Assembly (NCBI GenBank): GCA_046757165.1
Contig: JBHHXT010000051.1
Coordinates: 1-27,870 of the forward strand
Source: a bacterium
GTDB taxonomy: Bacteria; Zhuqueibacterota; Zhuqueibacteria; Oceanimicrobiales; Oceanimicrobiaceae
Direction: 5' to 3'
Length of the DNA: 27,870 bases
Shown here: positions 15,723-24,806 of the stretch, piece by piece
Position numbering within the stretch: the stretch's first letter is position 1
Layout of the letters: each line of letters starts with the position of its first letter
Translations under genes and position numbers: made by a program
The notes under the pieces: generated by a model
Databases searched by the model: none
What the model was told of the DNA's origin: nothing
Seen by the model: the letters and a program-made list of their open reading frames with translations, nothing else

Positions 15723-15747
15723 TAGAAAATTGCAAGAGGTTGAGACC

Positions 15748-16458
15748 ATGAACACGAAATACAAAACAGTTGGCTTGCAGAAAAAAATGAGGGGATGGAT
15801 GCAGAACGCAAGGCCTCTGCCTTTCGTTGCAGGGGTGTTGTTCCTTTCCATGCTGCCTGCGAGTAGCACCAAATCCGTCATCGTCTCCTGGGATGCGAAC
15901 AGGGAAGATGACCTGGCGGGCTATCGAGTCTATGTGGGCGAAAGGTCCGGCCAGTATCAGCAGGATGTTTACGTGGGAAACGTCACCTCTCACAGGGTCT
16001 CCGGTTTGGAGCCTAACCAACGCTACTATTTCGTGGTGACGGCCCTTGACCACGCCGGCAACGAGAGCGGTTTTTCCGAAGAAGTGGACATCCTGACCCC
16101 GGAAGACAGTGAGGGCGATGGCGATGGAGGGGATCCGCCTGATCCCGCTTCCGATGGGTCGCGGACGCTGAGCCCGCTAGCGTACAATTTCCCGAATCCG
16201 TTTCGTGTGAGTCGGGAAGCGACAACCATCCGGTACGAGCTCTTGTCGCCCGGCGAAATTACGATTCAGATTTTGGATGCGAATACGAATCTGGTCAAGA
16301 CCATCGTCAAGAACCAGCTCAAGCGCGCTGGTGAGCATATCGAAGACAGGTGGGACGGCACCAACCGTCATGGCCAGTATGTTGCCAACGGTGTCTACTT
16401 TTGCAATATTCGGACCGACAATGAGCAGGCAATGATCAAAATAGCCATAACCCGATAA
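15748..16458 (+). CDS. Secreted fibronectin type III protein with a FlgD-Ig / T9SS type A-like C-terminal domain
   Basis: GAGGT RBS before ATG 15748; hydrophobic signal; FN3 VSWD...LAGYRVY...GLEP...YYFVVTALD.AGNES; CTD YNFPNPF...TIRYEL...WDG.N..G..VANGVYF...KIAITR. Confidence 0.85.
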   Translation: MNTKYKTVGLQKKMRGWMQNARPLPFVAGVLFLSMLPASSTKSVIVSWDANREDDLAGYRVYVGERSGQYQQDVYVGNVTSHRVSGLEPNQRYYFVVTALDHAGNESGFSEEVDILTPEDSEGDGDGGDPPDPASDGSRTLSPLAYNFPNPFRVSREATTIRYELLSPGEITIQILDANTNLVKTIVKNQLKRAGEHIEDRWDGTNRHGQYVANGVYFCNIRTDNEQAMIKIAITR

Positions 16459-16473
16459 TCTAACATCGAAGGA

Positions 16474-17718
16474 ATGATGATTATGCAACCGATGAAAGGC
16501 AACTCAGTGCGCCTTACAATTTTGTGGCTCACGCTGCTGCTCACCTTGCCGGCGGGCCGGCGGGTGCTGGCGCAAGAAACCACGGTGAGCGCCGCAAGCC
16601 AGGAGAGCAACGGTGCTCCGGGCGTGTTTCTTAGACTAGGAGTCGGGGCGCGGGCCCTGGGCATGGGGAGCGCGTTTACTGCCGTGGCAAACGATGCTTC
16701 TGCTGGTTACTGGAATCCGGCCGGACTCGATCTGGTTGAACGCGCGCAATTCGAGTTTATGAATGTGGATTTGCCGTTCGACCGTACCTTCAATTTCATC
16801 AGTACTGCGCTTCCGATCAAGAACTTGTTTACTCTGGGGGCGAGCTGGGTCGGACTCAGGGTCAATGACATCGAAGGCAGAACCACAAACAGCGTCGAGC
16901 CGGAGTATTTTTTTGGCAATTCGCAAAACGCATTTTTCTTTTCCTTTGGTAAGACACTGGGGTACAATCTGGCGGTCGGCGGCAGTCTCAAGTTGATCCG
17001 CAACACCCTGGACGAGGACGCCGCCAACGGCCTGGGGTTCGACGCCGGGGTCATGCTGCGGCTAACCGACCGGATTTCCCTGGGGGCGCTGGCGCAGGAC
17101 ATCGGAACGGACTACCGCTGGGATAGCGGCCTGACCGAGGGGGTGCCGATGACACTGCGCCTCGGCGCTGCCGTCAAGGCTTACGACGGCGTAATGTTAG
17201 CGGCTGATGTCAGTCAAGTCTCCGGACTCGAGCCGACCCTTCACCTTGGCGCCGAGATCCGGCCCCTCAAAGTGCTGCCCATCAGGCTGGGCTACAACGA
17301 TGACCAGATCACCGGCGGTGCAGGTCTTGCTCTACCGCTCTCTAATCATACACTGGAATTGAACTATGGGTACTCAAACGACCGCATTCTGCATGCAGAT
17401 ATTCACCGGGTCTCGGTCGTCTTCTCTTTTGGCAGCAAGGCAAAGCCGGCGTATGAGAGCTCTGGCAGCGCTTACCCATCGAAGAAGAAACGGAACCCGG
17501 GCCGAACCGGCTATCGCGGAAAAGGTGAGTTCGTGGTGGTGACCGCACGGGTGTTGAATGTGCGCTCTGGACCCGGAACCCGCTACCTGAAGATCGCTCA
17601 GGCAAAGAGCGGACAGAGACTCGAGATGCTGCAACAGAAAGGCGTATGGAGAAAAATACGGTTAGACAATGGCCGTACCGGATGGGTGCACGGCAAGTAC
17701 GTCAGGCTGATTAATTAA
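16474..17718 (+). CDS. PorV/PorQ (FadL-like) outer-membrane beta-barrel fused to a C-terminal bacterial SH3 domain
   Basis: FLRLGVGARALGMGSAFTAVANDASAGYWNPAGL signature; amphipathic strands ending HRVSVVFSF; then SH3b LNVRSGPGT.Y...W..I...G..GWV...YV. Start may be ATG 16483. Confidence 0.85.
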   Translation: MMIMQPMKGNSVRLTILWLTLLLTLPAGRRVLAQETTVSAASQESNGAPGVFLRLGVGARALGMGSAFTAVANDASAGYWNPAGLDLVERAQFEFMNVDLPFDRTFNFISTALPIKNLFTLGASWVGLRVNDIEGRTTNSVEPEYFFGNSQNAFFFSFGKTLGYNLAVGGSLKLIRNTLDEDAANGLGFDAGVMLRLTDRISLGALAQDIGTDYRWDSGLTEGVPMTLRLGAAVKAYDGVMLAADVSQVSGLEPTLHLGAEIRPLKVLPIRLGYNDDQITGGAGLALPLSNHTLELNYGYSNDRILHADIHRVSVVFSFGSKAKPAYESSGSAYPSKKKRNPGRTGYRGKGEFVVVTARVLNVRSGPGTRYLKIAQAKSGQRLEMLQQKGVWRKIRLDNGRTGWVHGKYVRLIN

Positions 17719-17839: not shown

Positions 17840-18385
17840 TTAGGAAATCAATTCTGCCGGCAGCACGTCTTTCACCTCCACCTTTTTGTCACTGTATTCG
17901 TTGTATGCCTCGACCAATTCCTCCAGTGCGCTCCGGTATTGGTGCCGCTCACCTGCTTGCGGGTCTTCTTCCATCTCCCTCCGGGCCTCCAGGATGGTAT
18001 TGCCGATTTTTTCGAAATAGTAGTTTGACATGGATGTCTTGATCAAATGCGCGACAGATTTCTCTATGTCCTTGCTAACGAGACTTTTGAACGGATTTCT
18101 GGATTGCGTATGATTGCCCCGTTCAGAATCCTTAAAGGGCTTTACGGCATGAAACTGATTCAGGCTGCTGATCAACTTGTAATCGATGCCAAGATAGTCC
18201 AGATTTGCTCCGCCATAGTCGCCTTCGGTGTCATTGGCGAGATTTTTGAGCAAATATCTTTCGATCGTTGCTCGCTCTTCATCGCTCAACTTGCGGTGTG
18301 AGGCATAACGAAAAGAATGTGATTGGCCAGCATGCTGCACCTGGATCATGACGTCGGACTTCGAGAAATAGTAAAGCTCTTTCAT
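17840..18385 (-). CDS. Hypothetical cytoplasmic protein (181 aa)
   Basis: Fills the gap between flanking genes, GGAG RBS upstream of the ATG, protein-like composition; no motif recognised. Confidence 0.75.
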   Translation of the reverse strand: MKELYYFSKSDVMIQVQHAGQSHSFRYASHRKLSDEERATIERYLLKNLANDTEGDYGGANLDYLGIDYKLISSLNQFHAVKPFKDSERGNHTQSRNPFKSLVSKDIEKSVAHLIKTSMSNYYFEKIGNTILEARREMEEDPQAGERHQYRSALEELVEAYNEYSDKKVEVKDVLPAELIS

Positions 18386-18613: not shown

Positions 18614-21600
18614 TTATTTGCATGGTAGAAACCGCACCGTAGTCTCCATCTCCTCCAGCACTTGCGCAATCGCCAGTAGGGTTTCATCGATATCCTGCTC
18701 AGTCGTGTCGTGGGATAGCGAGAATCGCACAGCGCAGTGGGCGTCTTCCTCGCTCTTTCCCATGGCGAGCAGAACATGGGTCGGCTCCGGCGAGCCGGCT
18801 TTGCAGGCGGAGCCCGATGAAAGCGAAATGCCGTGCTGGTCCAGGGCCACGACAAGGGATTCTCCGCGCAGGTCAGGCAAGGTCAAATTCGACGTGTTTG
18901 GCAACCGGTTTTCGGCGGAGCCGTTGAGTATTGCCTCCGGGATAAGTTCCAGAATACCCCGCTCGAGCTTATCCCGCAGTTTGGCCAGATTTTCAGTATG
19001 AGGCAAAACCTGGCGGGCCAGCTCAGCCGCCTTTCCGAATCCGACGATGGCAGGGACGTTTTCAGTGCCGGCTCGCAAGCCACCTTCCTGCTTGCCCCCA
19101 TGAATCAGCGGCTCGATGTCGACCCCTTTCTTGACGTAGAGGGCGCCGATGCCTTTGGGCGCATAAAGCTTGTGGCCAGAGAGACTCAGCAGATCGACAT
19201 TCAAATCCGCCGCGTCCAGAGGGATCTTGCCTGCGGCTTGCACAGCATCGGTATGAAAAAGTGCGCCACGTTCGTGCGCAACCGCGCACAGCTCTTTGAT
19301 GGGGAGGAGGGTGCCGACTTCATTATTGGCCATCATGATGGAAACCAGGATGGTCTGGTCTGTGAGAGCTTTGTATAGTTTTTCCGGCGCCAGCCAGCCA
19401 TCGCCGTCGACCTCCAGGTAAGTCACGGCGTAACCGATTTTCTGCAGGAATTTGCAGGCGCCCAGGATAGCCGGGTGCTCGATGGTGGTGGTGATGATGT
19501 GGTTCCCTTTGTCCCTGTGGGCAAACGCCACACCTTTGAGCGCCAGGTTGTCCGCCTCGGACCCGCCGCCGGTAAAAATGATTCTGCGCGGCCGGACATT
19601 GATCAGCCTGGCCAACTGCCGGCGGGCATTTTCAACCGCCTCCCTGGCGTCACGTCCGGTGCCGTGGATGCTGGAGGGATTGCCGTGCAGGGTTTGCAAG
19701 TAAGGGCGCATGGCCTCTGCAACTTGCTCATGCACGCGGGTCGTGGCATTGTTGTCGAGATAGACGCGCCGGGCCGCTTTGTTTTCAGAGATCCTGTTGT
19801 TTACCAGCACTGGCCCGCAGGCCGCGACGCGCCGGTTGATGATACGCCTGTCTCTCGGGCTGCCTTCTTCTACCTTGACGACTTCGGCCAGGAGCGCTTT
19901 GTACACCGGGAAACCTGAGATTCGGTCGTAATTGTCGAGGTCCGTCAGCTCGTTGACGTTCCACCTTTGCCAGGCTTTTGGCCCGACCGGGCCGCCACCG
20001 CCCATGTTGCATTCGATGCAGCCTTTGGCGATGTCGTCGCTGACACGTGCGCGGAACGGGACGGAACCGCGCGCGGTTTGCACCTGCACCAGGTCGCCGC
20101 TCTGGATGTCTCGCTCGGCCGCGTCTTCGAAATTGAGCTCCACAGTGGGTTCAGGATTGTCCCTGGCTAGCCCTTTGATGCCGTGGTGTTGCGAGCGGAA
20201 ATCCGTGTGGGGCCGGGCGCCCGAGTTGAAGACCAGCGGAAATTGCTTTGCAAGCTCAGGATTCGCTTTTGGGCCTTCCTTCGGTTCAATGTATTTAGGC
20301 AGCGGTTCGTAGCCATACTCCTCCAGGGCAGTCGACCAGATTTCGAATTTACCGGTCGGTGTATCGAAGCCCGGCTGGCCATCTGGCCGCAGACCGCCCT
20401 TTTGCCATTTCTTGTATTCCATCATCGGTGTGGGGATTTTGACCCAGCCACCGGCTTCTTTTACCTGCTCGAGCGTATATCCCGAGCCTTGCAGGGCGAA
20501 CCGAATGAGTGCCTCCTCGCTTTGAGGGTAGAGGTGACCATAACCCAGCCGGTTGGCGAGCTCTGACATGATCAGGTAGTCGTTGCGCGCCTGCCCGACC
20601 GGCTCGATCAATTTCTCACGCAGCCGGAAAATGGGCCCGTAAACCATGTAGGACTCGATTTCGAACATGGTGGTGGCTGGCAGGACAATGTCAGCATACG
20701 CCGCATCCGCGGTCAGCTGCCGGTCAATGCAAACCTGAAAATCGAGTCCGGAGAGGGTTTCGCGCCAGACCGGGGTCTGCGGCCAGGAGGTCAGCAACGA
20801 AGCCCCATGAATGATCAGGCCGCGAATCCGGTACGGCTCGCCTTTGAGCACAGAGTCGACCAGGCCGCTGGCATGTGACTCGCCGCGATAGTGACTGTAG
20901 ATCGGGACCTTGTCGCGCGCGACCGCCAGATCGATATCGGGATTCTCCTGGTTGCAGGAGCGATTGATCGGGAAATGGGTGTTCAACATGGCCAGGCCGA
21001 GGCCGCCGGGGACATCGAGTTGCCCGGCTAAGGCGAACAGTGTCAGCACGGCGCGGATGGCCTGGATGCCGCTGTTGGAGTATTCGAGACCGGTGTACAT
21101 CACAGGGCAAGCTCCGGTGGCGTGGCTGATCCGGCGGGCGAGCTCCCGCAGGGTCTCTGCCGGCACCCCCGTGATTTGCTCGACCACCTGCGGGCGAAAG
21201 TGCTGCGTGTAGGTGCGCAATTCCTGAAAGCCGTGACACCAATTCTCCGCAAAATCTTCATCATACAGCTCTTCATCGAGCATGACTTCGATGAGACCGA
21301 GAGCGAGGGCGCCATCCGTGCCGGGCCGAATGGGGACCCACTGCGCGCCGGTTCGAATGGCCGTGTCCGTACGTCGAGGATCGATCACCACGATGTCGGC
21401 ACCGCGTTTGGCTGCGGTTTCCAAACGATGCATATCCAGGGGCGGCGAGTCCGTGGCCGGGTTTGCGCCCCAAACCACCAGCATCTCCGCGTTCTCCATG
21501 TCGCTAAACATGTTGACGAGCATGCGACCCATGGTGACATGTGGCGCGATCATGGCAAAGGAGACATAGCAAAGCGCGCCGACCCCCATCGTATTCGGGG

Positions 21601-22036
21601 AGCCAAACGGAAACAGAATGTTCGATGCTGAAGAGACTGCGACACCCTTCGGCTGGTACATATCACAGAGCGAGAGCTCAAACGCGCCGCGCCCGGTGTA
21701 GATGGCCACAGCCTCAGGCCCGGACTCTGCCTTGATCGTCTTGAGATTATCCACGATGATGTCGTACGCTTCGTCCCAGTCAATGCGCTCAAACTCATGC
21801 GTGCCTTTAGGCCCGACGCGCTTCAGGGGATATCGCAGCCGGTGCTCGGACGTGACGATCTCGGGTGTATGCTCGCCGCGCCGGCAAATCATGCCGAGTG
21901 CATGGGAGTCGTCAGGTCGAATGTCGACGATCTGGCCATTTTTTTTCTCGACTTCTACCCAGCAGCCGGCCGGGCAAATGCCGCAAATGCCCTTCTGCCA
22001 GCCACCGGTTATGGACGTTGGGGGGGGATTAGCCAT
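18614..22036 (-). CDS. Fusion: Mo/W-bisPGD (DMSO reductase superfamily) oxidoreductase + NifS/IscS-type PLP cysteine desulfurase
   Basis: aa ~13-722: C18-x2-C21-x3-C25...C51 [4Fe-4S] motif, RLRYPLKR, WDEA, FGSPN...LC156, WGANP, VIDPR, PIRPGTDGAL, ADIVLPA and a molydopterin-binding domain. aa ~757-1140: YLDNNATT, FTGGGSEADN, EHPAI, ANNEVG, HTDAVQ, SGHK956, SSGSAC1078. One continuous ORF with an AAGGAG RBS. Confidence 0.93.
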   Translation of the reverse strand: MANPPPTSITGGWQKGICGICPAGCWVEVEKKNGQIVDIRPDDSHALGMICRRGEHTPEIVTSEHRLRYPLKRVGPKGTHEFERIDWDEAYDIIVDNLKTIKAESGPEAVAIYTGRGAFELSLCDMYQPKGVAVSSASNILFPFGSPNTMGVGALCYVSFAMIAPHVTMGRMLVNMFSDMENAEMLVVWGANPATDSPPLDMHRLETAAKRGADIVVIDPRRTDTAIRTGAQWVPIRPGTDGALALGLIEVMLDEELYDEDFAENWCHGFQELRTYTQHFRPQVVEQITGVPAETLRELARRISHATGACPVMYTGLEYSNSGIQAIRAVLTLFALAGQLDVPGGLGLAMLNTHFPINRSCNQENPDIDLAVARDKVPIYSHYRGESHASGLVDSVLKGEPYRIRGLIIHGASLLTSWPQTPVWRETLSGLDFQVCIDRQLTADAAYADIVLPATTMFEIESYMVYGPIFRLREKLIEPVGQARNDYLIMSELANRLGYGHLYPQSEEALIRFALQGSGYTLEQVKEAGGWVKIPTPMMEYKKWQKGGLRPDGQPGFDTPTGKFEIWSTALEEYGYEPLPKYIEPKEGPKANPELAKQFPLVFNSGARPHTDFRSQHHGIKGLARDNPEPTVELNFEDAAERDIQSGDLVQVQTARGSVPFRARVSDDIAKGCIECNMGGGGPVGPKAWQRWNVNELTDLDNYDRISGFPVYKALLAEVVKVEEGSPRDRRIINRRVAACGPVLVNNRISENKAARRVYLDNNATTRVHEQVAEAMRPYLQTLHGNPSSIHGTGRDAREAVENARRQLARLINVRPRRIIFTGGGSEADNLALKGVAFAHRDKGNHIITTTIEHPAILGACKFLQKIGYAVTYLEVDGDGWLAPEKLYKALTDQTILVSIMMANNEVGTLLPIKELCAVAHERGALFHTDAVQAAGKIPLDAADLNVDLLSLSGHKLYAPKGIGALYVKKGVDIEPLIHGGKQEGGLRAGTENVPAIVGFGKAAELARQVLPHTENLAKLRDKLERGILELIPEAILNGSAENRLPNTSNLTLPDLRGESLVVALDQHGISLSSGSACKAGSPEPTHVLLAMGKSEEDAHCAVRFSLSHDTTEQDIDETLLAIAQVLEEMETTVRFLPCK

Positions 22037-22121
22037 GTTTTCTCCTTAAACCTGAGATGTACCGCTTTTGGGGAAGTTAAGGGATTGAGACATCATTTGC
22101 AACTGAATCAGGAACTTGTCT

Positions 22122-24557: not shown

Positions 24558-24806
24558 CTATCTGGCACAGGTCAGGTGTCGTCCTCCGTCTATATTCAGG
24601 GTCACGCCTGTGACCCAGCCAGAGTTTTCAGAGGCCAGAAAGAGAATGGAGTGTGCGATTTCACCGGCCTCACCAACCCGGCCCAGGGGATGAGTGGTCT
24701 TGCTGTGCTCGAGGAATGCGCCATTTTTTGCAAACAGAAGCGCTGTCGCTTTGCCAATGCCACTGGATGCGCCGGTGATGAGCGCACCGCTCTCCTGCAA
24801 CTGCAT
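24558..24806 (-). pseudogene. Short-chain dehydrogenase/reductase remnant with a large in-frame internal deletion
   Basis: N-terminal ALITGASSGIGKATA (TGxxxGIG) is joined directly to the SDR C-terminus HPLGRVG...EIA..ILFLAS..SGWVTG..L.IDGG. The NAG and YxxxK core is absent; only 82 aa; GGAGG RBS retained. Confidence 0.85.

Follow-up and report, generated by a model that had tools for sequence, protein, structure and literature searches.

What would an enzyme do that carries, in one chain, a molybdenum- or tungsten-dependent module of the DMSO reductase superfamily and a complete cysteine desulfurase? A gene for such a fusion lies on the 27,870-nucleotide stretch analysed here (the window), contig JBHHXT010000051.1 of a genome of the Oceanimicrobiaceae (GCA_046757165.1). 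A sequence-only reading of this DNA had offered two answers, (a) that the enzyme sulfurates its own cofactor or builds its own Fe-S cluster, or (b) that sulfur or selenium, taken from cysteine or selenocysteine, is channelled to its Mo site as a substrate, and had known of no biochemical description. The last point was wrong: metallopterin-dependent ergothioneine synthase (MES) was characterised by Beliaeva and Seebeck in 2022 (JACS Au; PMC9516567), and answer (b) is essentially its published mechanism. Judged from its sequence, the fusion is very probably an orthologue of MES, making ergothioneine from cysteine and trimethylhistidine (TMH) without oxygen. The gene is a member of a family already known since 2022, and its host is an additional one.

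The fusion protein and the MES family

The open reading frame (ORF) list and translation bore out a single uninterrupted frame of 1140 residues on the minus strand of the window (18614–22036); the plus-strand frame over the same interval has many stops. A Pfam scan found four domains, confirming the expected anatomy of a DMSO-reductase-family module followed by a group I desulfurase, and the motifs listed beforehand (Cys18/21/25/51, GSPN at residue 145, Cys156, Lys956 in SGHK and Cys1078 in SSGSAC) stand at the positions claimed. For the first 723 residues, the top solved match in a PDB sequence search was acetylene hydratase (2E7Z; E 3.5e-70), followed by polysulfide/thiosulfate reductase (2VPW); no MES chain was found in PDB searches with the fusion. 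The NCBIfam models for molybdoenzymes all scored far below their cut-offs (PhsA 245/694 bits, Fdh-alpha 279/666, DmsA 230/778), and the NifS model TIGR03402 scored just under its own (512.8 bits vs 530.75).

MES consists of an acetylene hydratase-related N-terminal module fused to a cysteine desulfurase, and was discovered because it accompanies the histidine methyltransferase EgtD in 55 out of some 80 genomes without EgtB and EanB (PMC9516567). Four MES homologues produced ergothioneine from TMH in E. coli, the Caldithrix abyssi enzyme (CaMES) about 400 μM and a hydrothermal-vent metagenome enzyme (hvMES) 83–153 μM; MES was the only Mo/W enzyme forming a C-S bond known to its discoverers (PMC9516567). 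Table S1 of that paper defines the family by Cys153, Lys952, Cys1074, Cys1097 and Cys1135 of CaMES. All five of these residues and the four Fe-S cysteines, nine named residues in total, are present in the fusion and nearly invariant among its homologues (Table 1). The assignment of Cys156 as metal ligand agrees with CaMES Cys153, which is essential by mutation (PMC9516567). The sequence-only inventory of catalytic cysteines was right for Cys156 and Cys1078 and overlooked Cys1101 and the C-terminal Cys1139.

Because the tested enzymes were not among the 120 proteins that we collected, identities to them were counted by eye on the printed sequences. Around the metal ligand (residues 101–212) the fusion shares 99 of 112 positions with hvMES (88%) and 89 of 112 with CaMES (79%); over residues 309–421 it shares 89 of 113 with hvMES (79%). 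The last ten residues, ETTVRFLPCK, are identical in the fusion and hvMES. Four short N-terminal motifs of the tested enzymes had no match among the 120 proteins, and cluster look-ups for 10 proteins yielded no UniProt identifiers to compare with Table S1. hvMES (UniProt A0A3B1C0R1) has the same two modules and all the named catalytic residues; it is active in E. coli, and differs from the fusion in its linker and N-terminus. CaMES, the type enzyme (UniProt A0A7V4WV16; 1136 residues vs 1140), is farther from the fusion than hvMES is.

The mechanism proposed for the fusion leans on the mutants of CaMES (PMC9516567). In that enzyme, output fell 2000-fold with K952A, C1074S or C1135S, by half with C1097S and almost to nothing with C153S. 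The K952A and C153S variants did not cross-complement, indicating that sulfur is transferred within one chain, and the authors proposed a persulfide relay from Cys1074 to Cys1135. K952A retained 34S exchange between ergothioneine and TMH, so that the desulfurase feeds each turnover rather than only aiding maturation. The C-S step is reversible. Attack on a Mo(VI)=S group was labelled tentative, the metal was left unidentified and full-length MES resisted purification (PMC9516567).

By analogy, the EgtD encoded on another contig of the host (C137, below) would methylate histidine to TMH, the gene being present and its activity predicted. The pyridoxal phosphate (PLP) module, through Lys956, would convert cysteine to alanine and leave a persulfide on Cys1078; the isolated C-terminal module of the C. 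abyssi enzyme performs the conversion in vitro (PMC9516567). Sulfur would then pass in the same chain from Cys1078 to Cys1139 and on to the metal of the bis-molybdopterin guanine dinucleotide (bis-MGD) cofactor; CaMES mutation showed the need for both relay cysteines and for a single chain, and the order of the relay is the authors' proposal (PMC9516567). Following their tentative mechanism, the TMH imidazole would attack metal(VI)=S, ergothioneine would be released, and the metal(IV) would be re-sulfurised by the next persulfide. The persulfide would supply the sulfur and both oxidising equivalents. Since it would re-oxidise the metal, we infer that the enzyme could dispense with a twin-arginine (Tat) signal, Fe-S subunit, membrane anchor and electron-transfer partner. 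As the sequence-only reading had noted, no twin-arginine motif was found at the N-terminus, and no Fe-S subunit, membrane anchor or TorD/FdhD chaperone among the 24 other window ORFs scanned (with the fusion, 25 of the 140 listed, chosen as likely genes).

These features separate the fusion from its better known relatives. Acetylene hydratase shares a cytoplasmic location and a [4Fe-4S] cluster with Cys-liganded bis-MGD (as described in PMC9516567), but it is a stand-alone protein of ~730 residues without a desulfurase module, adds water to acetylene, and has low identity to the fusion's module. The group I desulfurases NifS and IscS share the PLP lysine and the SSGSAC cysteine; the desulfurase studied here differs in being joined to another module and in having an extra penultimate cysteine, and its sulfur would stay on the same chain instead of being handed to a separate scaffold or carrier. 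EgtB and EanB perform the same step after EgtD with unrelated folds, EgtB requiring oxygen. Unlike the respiratory complexes of the DMSO reductase family (Psr/Phs, Dms, Fdh), the fusion has no family score over cut-off, no Tat signal and no partner genes nearby.

Table 1. Features of the predicted mes gene (window coordinates; aa, amino acid residues of the 1140-aa protein; rows are those of the homologue alignment).
Feature	Position	Strand	Evidence
mes gene, 1140-aa predicted MES orthologue (P0001)	18614..22036	-	ORF, Pfam, homologues, comparison with PMC9516567 supplement
Shine-Dalgarno-like AGGAG, 6-10 bases 5' of ATG	22042..22046	-	sequence
[4Fe-4S]-binding domain, aa 13-61, Cys18/21/25/51 (= CaMES Cys14/17/21/48)	21854..22000	-	PF04879 Molybdop_Fe4S4; each Cys 182/182 rows
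bis-MGD catalytic domain, aa 66-496	20549..21841	-	PF00384 Molybdopterin; best PDB match acetylene hydratase 2E7Z
Cys156, predicted Mo/W ligand (= CaMES Cys153)	21569..21571	-	182/182 rows; C153S inactivates CaMES
Molybdopterin dinucleotide-binding domain, aa 607-714	19895..20218	-	PF01568 Molydop_binding
Poorly conserved linker, aa 724-756	19769..19867	-	median identity 25%
Group I (NifS/IscS-type) PLP cysteine desulfurase module, aa 757-1140	18617..19768	-	PF00266 Aminotran_5 (758-1117); TIGR03402 best NCBIfam
Lys956, PLP lysine in SGHK (= CaMES Lys952)	19169..19171	-	182/182 rows
Cys1078 in SSGSAC, predicted first persulfide carrier (= CaMES Cys1074)	18803..18805	-	181/182 rows
Cys1101 (= CaMES Cys1097; two-fold effect when mutated)	18734..18736	-	179/182 rows
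Cys1139, penultimate residue, predicted second persulfide-relay cysteine (= CaMES Cys1135)	18620..18622	-	181/182 rows, one gap; C1135S = 2000-fold less ergothioneine

Conservation of the fusion and distribution of its pathway partners

The protein search scored 8000 candidates, 4571 of them at E <= 1e-50, and the best 120 including the query were examined; the others need not all be fusions. All 119 other listed proteins were full-length fusions with both domain sets (74–85% identity, 98–100% query coverage), against the notion that homologues might always be separate genes. Among 84 translated loci from other genomes, 63 held a complete single-ORF copy. The query, the 119 proteins and these 63 ORFs were aligned (183 rows; partial ORFs were excluded and duplicates between the sets retained). 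The linker, put beforehand at about 35 residues, has a median length of 34 (range 27–56), and median identity was 82% for the metallopterin module and 73% for the desulfurase. A scan of GTDB species genomes gave 408 stretches with a relative, of which 80 were retained as loci; by title these belong to candidate division KSB1, Calditrichota, Chloroflexota (many Dehalococcoidia), Gemmatimonadota, Actinomycetota, Acidobacteriota, Bdellovibrionales, Chromatiales and others. Most of the nearest named loci are from KSB1/Calditrichota, a group to which the host, too, likely belongs. It is a common fusion and an old one. One relative (G012) has two copies, and in another (G007) two overlapping ORFs of 524 and 603 residues (C39; L111:1864-5246) make up the MES gene, through a frameshift or an assembly error.

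Database names for these proteins, if there are any, are 'IscS/NifS cysteine desulfurase' or 'aminotransferase class V', and the MES family is therefore easily rediscovered. A 2023 review repeats the account of MES (PMC10903977), and a 2026 review cites the 2022 paper in its reference list (PMC13547098). A 2018 survey names cysteine desulfurase in one clause among fusion partners of molybdoproteins (PMC6147048), and the word MES is absent from PMC11664081 and PMC13674229. Our literature search, with subscription papers outside its reach, found no later primary study of MES. The gene adds one more host for a known and under-studied enzyme, and its many close homologues could give better candidates for structure work on MES or for ergothioneine production.

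The host genome (G000) is 99.98% complete in 531 contigs, and the fusion is single-copy in it. It has one egtD, outside the window (C137:2535-3542), with a TIGR03438 score of 391.9 bits vs a cut-off of 290.9. Its product retains all eight substrate-contact residues of Fig. S1 of PMC9516567 (Phe57, Ile60, Tyr66, Tyr219, Thr226, Phe229, Met265 and Glu295). On the same strand, 3' of egtD, lie a gene for a ProV-type ATPase and then a fused betaine-binding (OpuAC)/permease gene (all three genes within L082:140-3542), and the best PDB matches of the binding domain are the ergothioneine-binding domain EgtUC. OpuBA/OpuBB genes are tabulated near EgtB-type genes in PMC13674229. No EgtB over cut-off was found in the host (nine partial matches, the best 74.1 vs 360 bits for TIGR03440). 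EanB, probed indirectly through a rhodanese search, had no convincing match there: three ORFs were recovered, and the two long ones, which were compared, resemble MoeB/Uba4 and a metallo-beta-lactamase-rhodanese, not EanB. For the cofactor, modA and both copies of moaA scored over their cut-offs, with a mobA-like match just under (137.9 vs 151.85).

Next we compared the host with 40 relatives. These 41 genomes are kin and partly incomplete, so the counts are non-independent and no statistical test was applied. The fusion occurs in 16 (among them one copy divided between two contigs, one truncated at the end of a contig and one that lies in two frames), a strong egtD match in 22, and an EgtB-like match in 5, two of them over cut-off. 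egtD accompanies the fusion in 13 of 16 genomes and an EgtB-like gene in none; seen from the other side, the fusion is present in 13/22 genomes with egtD, 3/19 without it and 0/5 with an EgtB-like gene. Four of the nine remaining egtD genomes have an EgtB-like gene. That the fusion and EgtB-like genes never share a genome suggests that they replace each other within one bacterial family. In 15 of the 22 genomes with egtD, this gene and the transporter gene share a contig and stand no more than about 2.5 kb apart. Among the 80 GTDB loci, egtD lies 24–596 bp downstream of the fusion in 37, convergent in 31 and on the same strand in 6.

Several observations weigh against the assignment to MES. 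Our identities to the tested enzymes are by-eye counts on segments, not computed over whole chains. In the host, egtD is not adjacent to the fusion but on a separate contig, as it is in all 13 related genomes that have both. Five of the 22 genomes with egtD lack both the fusion and an EgtB-like gene, and no egtD was found in three of the 16 fusion genomes (G015, G017 and G027). In G015 the transporter operon is truncated by the start of a contig; G017 is fragmented and 9% contaminated, with other genes at the expected egtD position. G027 is 98% complete in 20 contigs. Likewise, 43 of the 80 GTDB loci show no egtD; in 25 of them the 3' end is complete and is followed by 1.5 kb or more of sequence. 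Finally, the abstract of the 2022 paper states that MES is exclusive to anaerobes (PMC9516567), a trait of distribution rather than of sequence, whereas the host has three cytochrome c oxidase coxA/coxB loci (L122, L123 and L124, on C227, C76 and C19; over cut-off for coxA in one of them and for coxB in all three), which suggest that it can respire oxygen. The separation from egtD and the host oxidases leave the family assignment unchanged; both, like the ABC transporter gene beside egtD, also set this system apart from CaMES. The separation and the oxidases make up, with the alternation with EgtB-like genes, our small additions to the MES literature examined.

The fusion of G027 (C3; L109:8609-12007) is 57% identical to that of the host and keeps all key residues; like egtD, an EgtU-like transporter was not found in that genome. 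A 329-residue ORF 3' of this fusion was considered as EgtD and rejected, as it is not an EgtD. At 4–7 kb from the fusion stand genes for a SUF-type desulfurase and an Rrf2 regulator.

Alternative functions of the fusion

The separation from egtD could mean that the fusion is an MES-like paralogue that sulfurises some other small molecule. The unlinked egtD of the host's lineage and the divergent fusion of G027 fit this reading, and the discoverers themselves suggested that related enzymes may sulfurise other heterocycles (PMC9516567). On the other hand, the compared segments are nearer to hvMES than hvMES-type and CaMES sequences appear, by eye, to each other in Fig. S2 of that paper. The fusion is also single-copy in the host, where no other sulfur-inserting partner for egtD was found, and its distribution is complementary to that of EgtB. 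We consider a paralogue very unlikely.

Equally improbable, in our estimate, is that the same enzyme serves mainly in salvage, in reverse or with selenium, sulfurising imported TMH, desulfurising imported ergothioneine, or making selenoneine from selenocysteine and TMH. The reversible C-S step of CaMES (PMC9516567) and the EgtU-like betaine ATP-binding cassette (ABC) transporter 3' of egtD are consistent with salvage, and two selD matches over cut-off in the host, one fused to a NifS-like domain, with a use of selenium. However, the fused desulfurase and intact egtD speak for net synthesis, and net removal of sulfur would call for an acceptor, which no nearby gene encodes. Among the window ORFs scanned, none was recognised as belonging to a selenium pathway.

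A variant of the selenium proposal keeps ergothioneine synthesis and adds to it: the enzyme might also pass selenium from selenocysteine through Cys1078, Cys1139 and the metal, giving O2-independent selenoneine. This would take place in a lineage that respires oxygen and in which MES and EgtB-like genes replace each other as interchangeable partners of a separate egtD-transporter operon. This joint reading draws on circumstantial evidence, namely the two selD matches, the NifS-SelD fusion and the complementary distribution of MES and EgtB, and we regard it as unlikely.

The NifS-SelD protein of the host is a 738-residue chain on C171 (L110:294-2510). NifS-SelD fusions are described as rare in PMC4561486; desulfurase matches in open frames of ~740–810 residues recur in many related genomes.

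Maturation of the enzyme by its own desulfurase, answer (a) above, would leave the N-terminal module an ordinary oxidoreductase or hydratase and the desulfurase the task of supplying a Mo=S ligand or Fe-S cluster. Sulfuration of cofactors by desulfurases has precedents in XdhC, formate dehydrogenase and Aba3 (PMC9516567). This reading is disfavoured by CaMES K952A, whose metal site still exchanges 34S and is active, yet which yields 2000-fold less ergothioneine (PMC9516567). Moreover, the host has three further group I desulfurases, stand-alone or otherwise fused, and no electron-transfer partner is encoded near the fusion, making self-maturation as the sole role highly improbable.

That the fusion is an assembly chimera or arose by accidental read-through from one gene into another, for which the 531 contigs of the host assembly and the weakly conserved linker might speak, can be dismissed with near certainty, since the 119 listed homologues and the 63 single-ORF copies from other genomes share the same fusion.

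Neighbouring genes in the window

The neighbours of the fusion in the window comprise a TonB-dependent receptor, a tetratricopeptide repeat (TPR) protein, a PorV-like protein, a two-component system and housekeeping genes. An operon with them was considered and rejected: of 94 loci, 4 have a match to the upstream TonB-dependent receptor and 5 to the 181-residue ORF downstream, and several of these loci are overlapping stretches of one piece of DNA. A promoter and terminator scan gave counts no higher than expected by chance (3 against 3.5 and 6 against 8.4). The 181-residue ORF, 3' of the fusion (17840–18385, minus strand), had no Pfam or NCBIfam match.

In other genomes, a gene of the pyridine nucleotide-disulphide oxidoreductase family lies near the fusion in 13 of 84 clustered loci (e.g. 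L080:10482-11876) and is a possible candidate for an ergothioneine-recycling reductase. An Lpd/PRK06370 gene is given near EgtB-type genes at 4% in PMC13674229.

Two further features of the window were seen. Type IX secretion-like parts are encoded at 15730–17718 (plus strand), namely an fn3/FlgD-Ig protein and a member of the PorV/PorQ family that has an SH3 domain. At 24558–24806 (minus strand) lies an 82-residue remnant of a short-chain dehydrogenase (SDR); the 30 residues at its start and the 52 at its end match the respective ends of a 279-residue SDR (L015) at 70% and 77%, indicating that the middle was deleted in frame.

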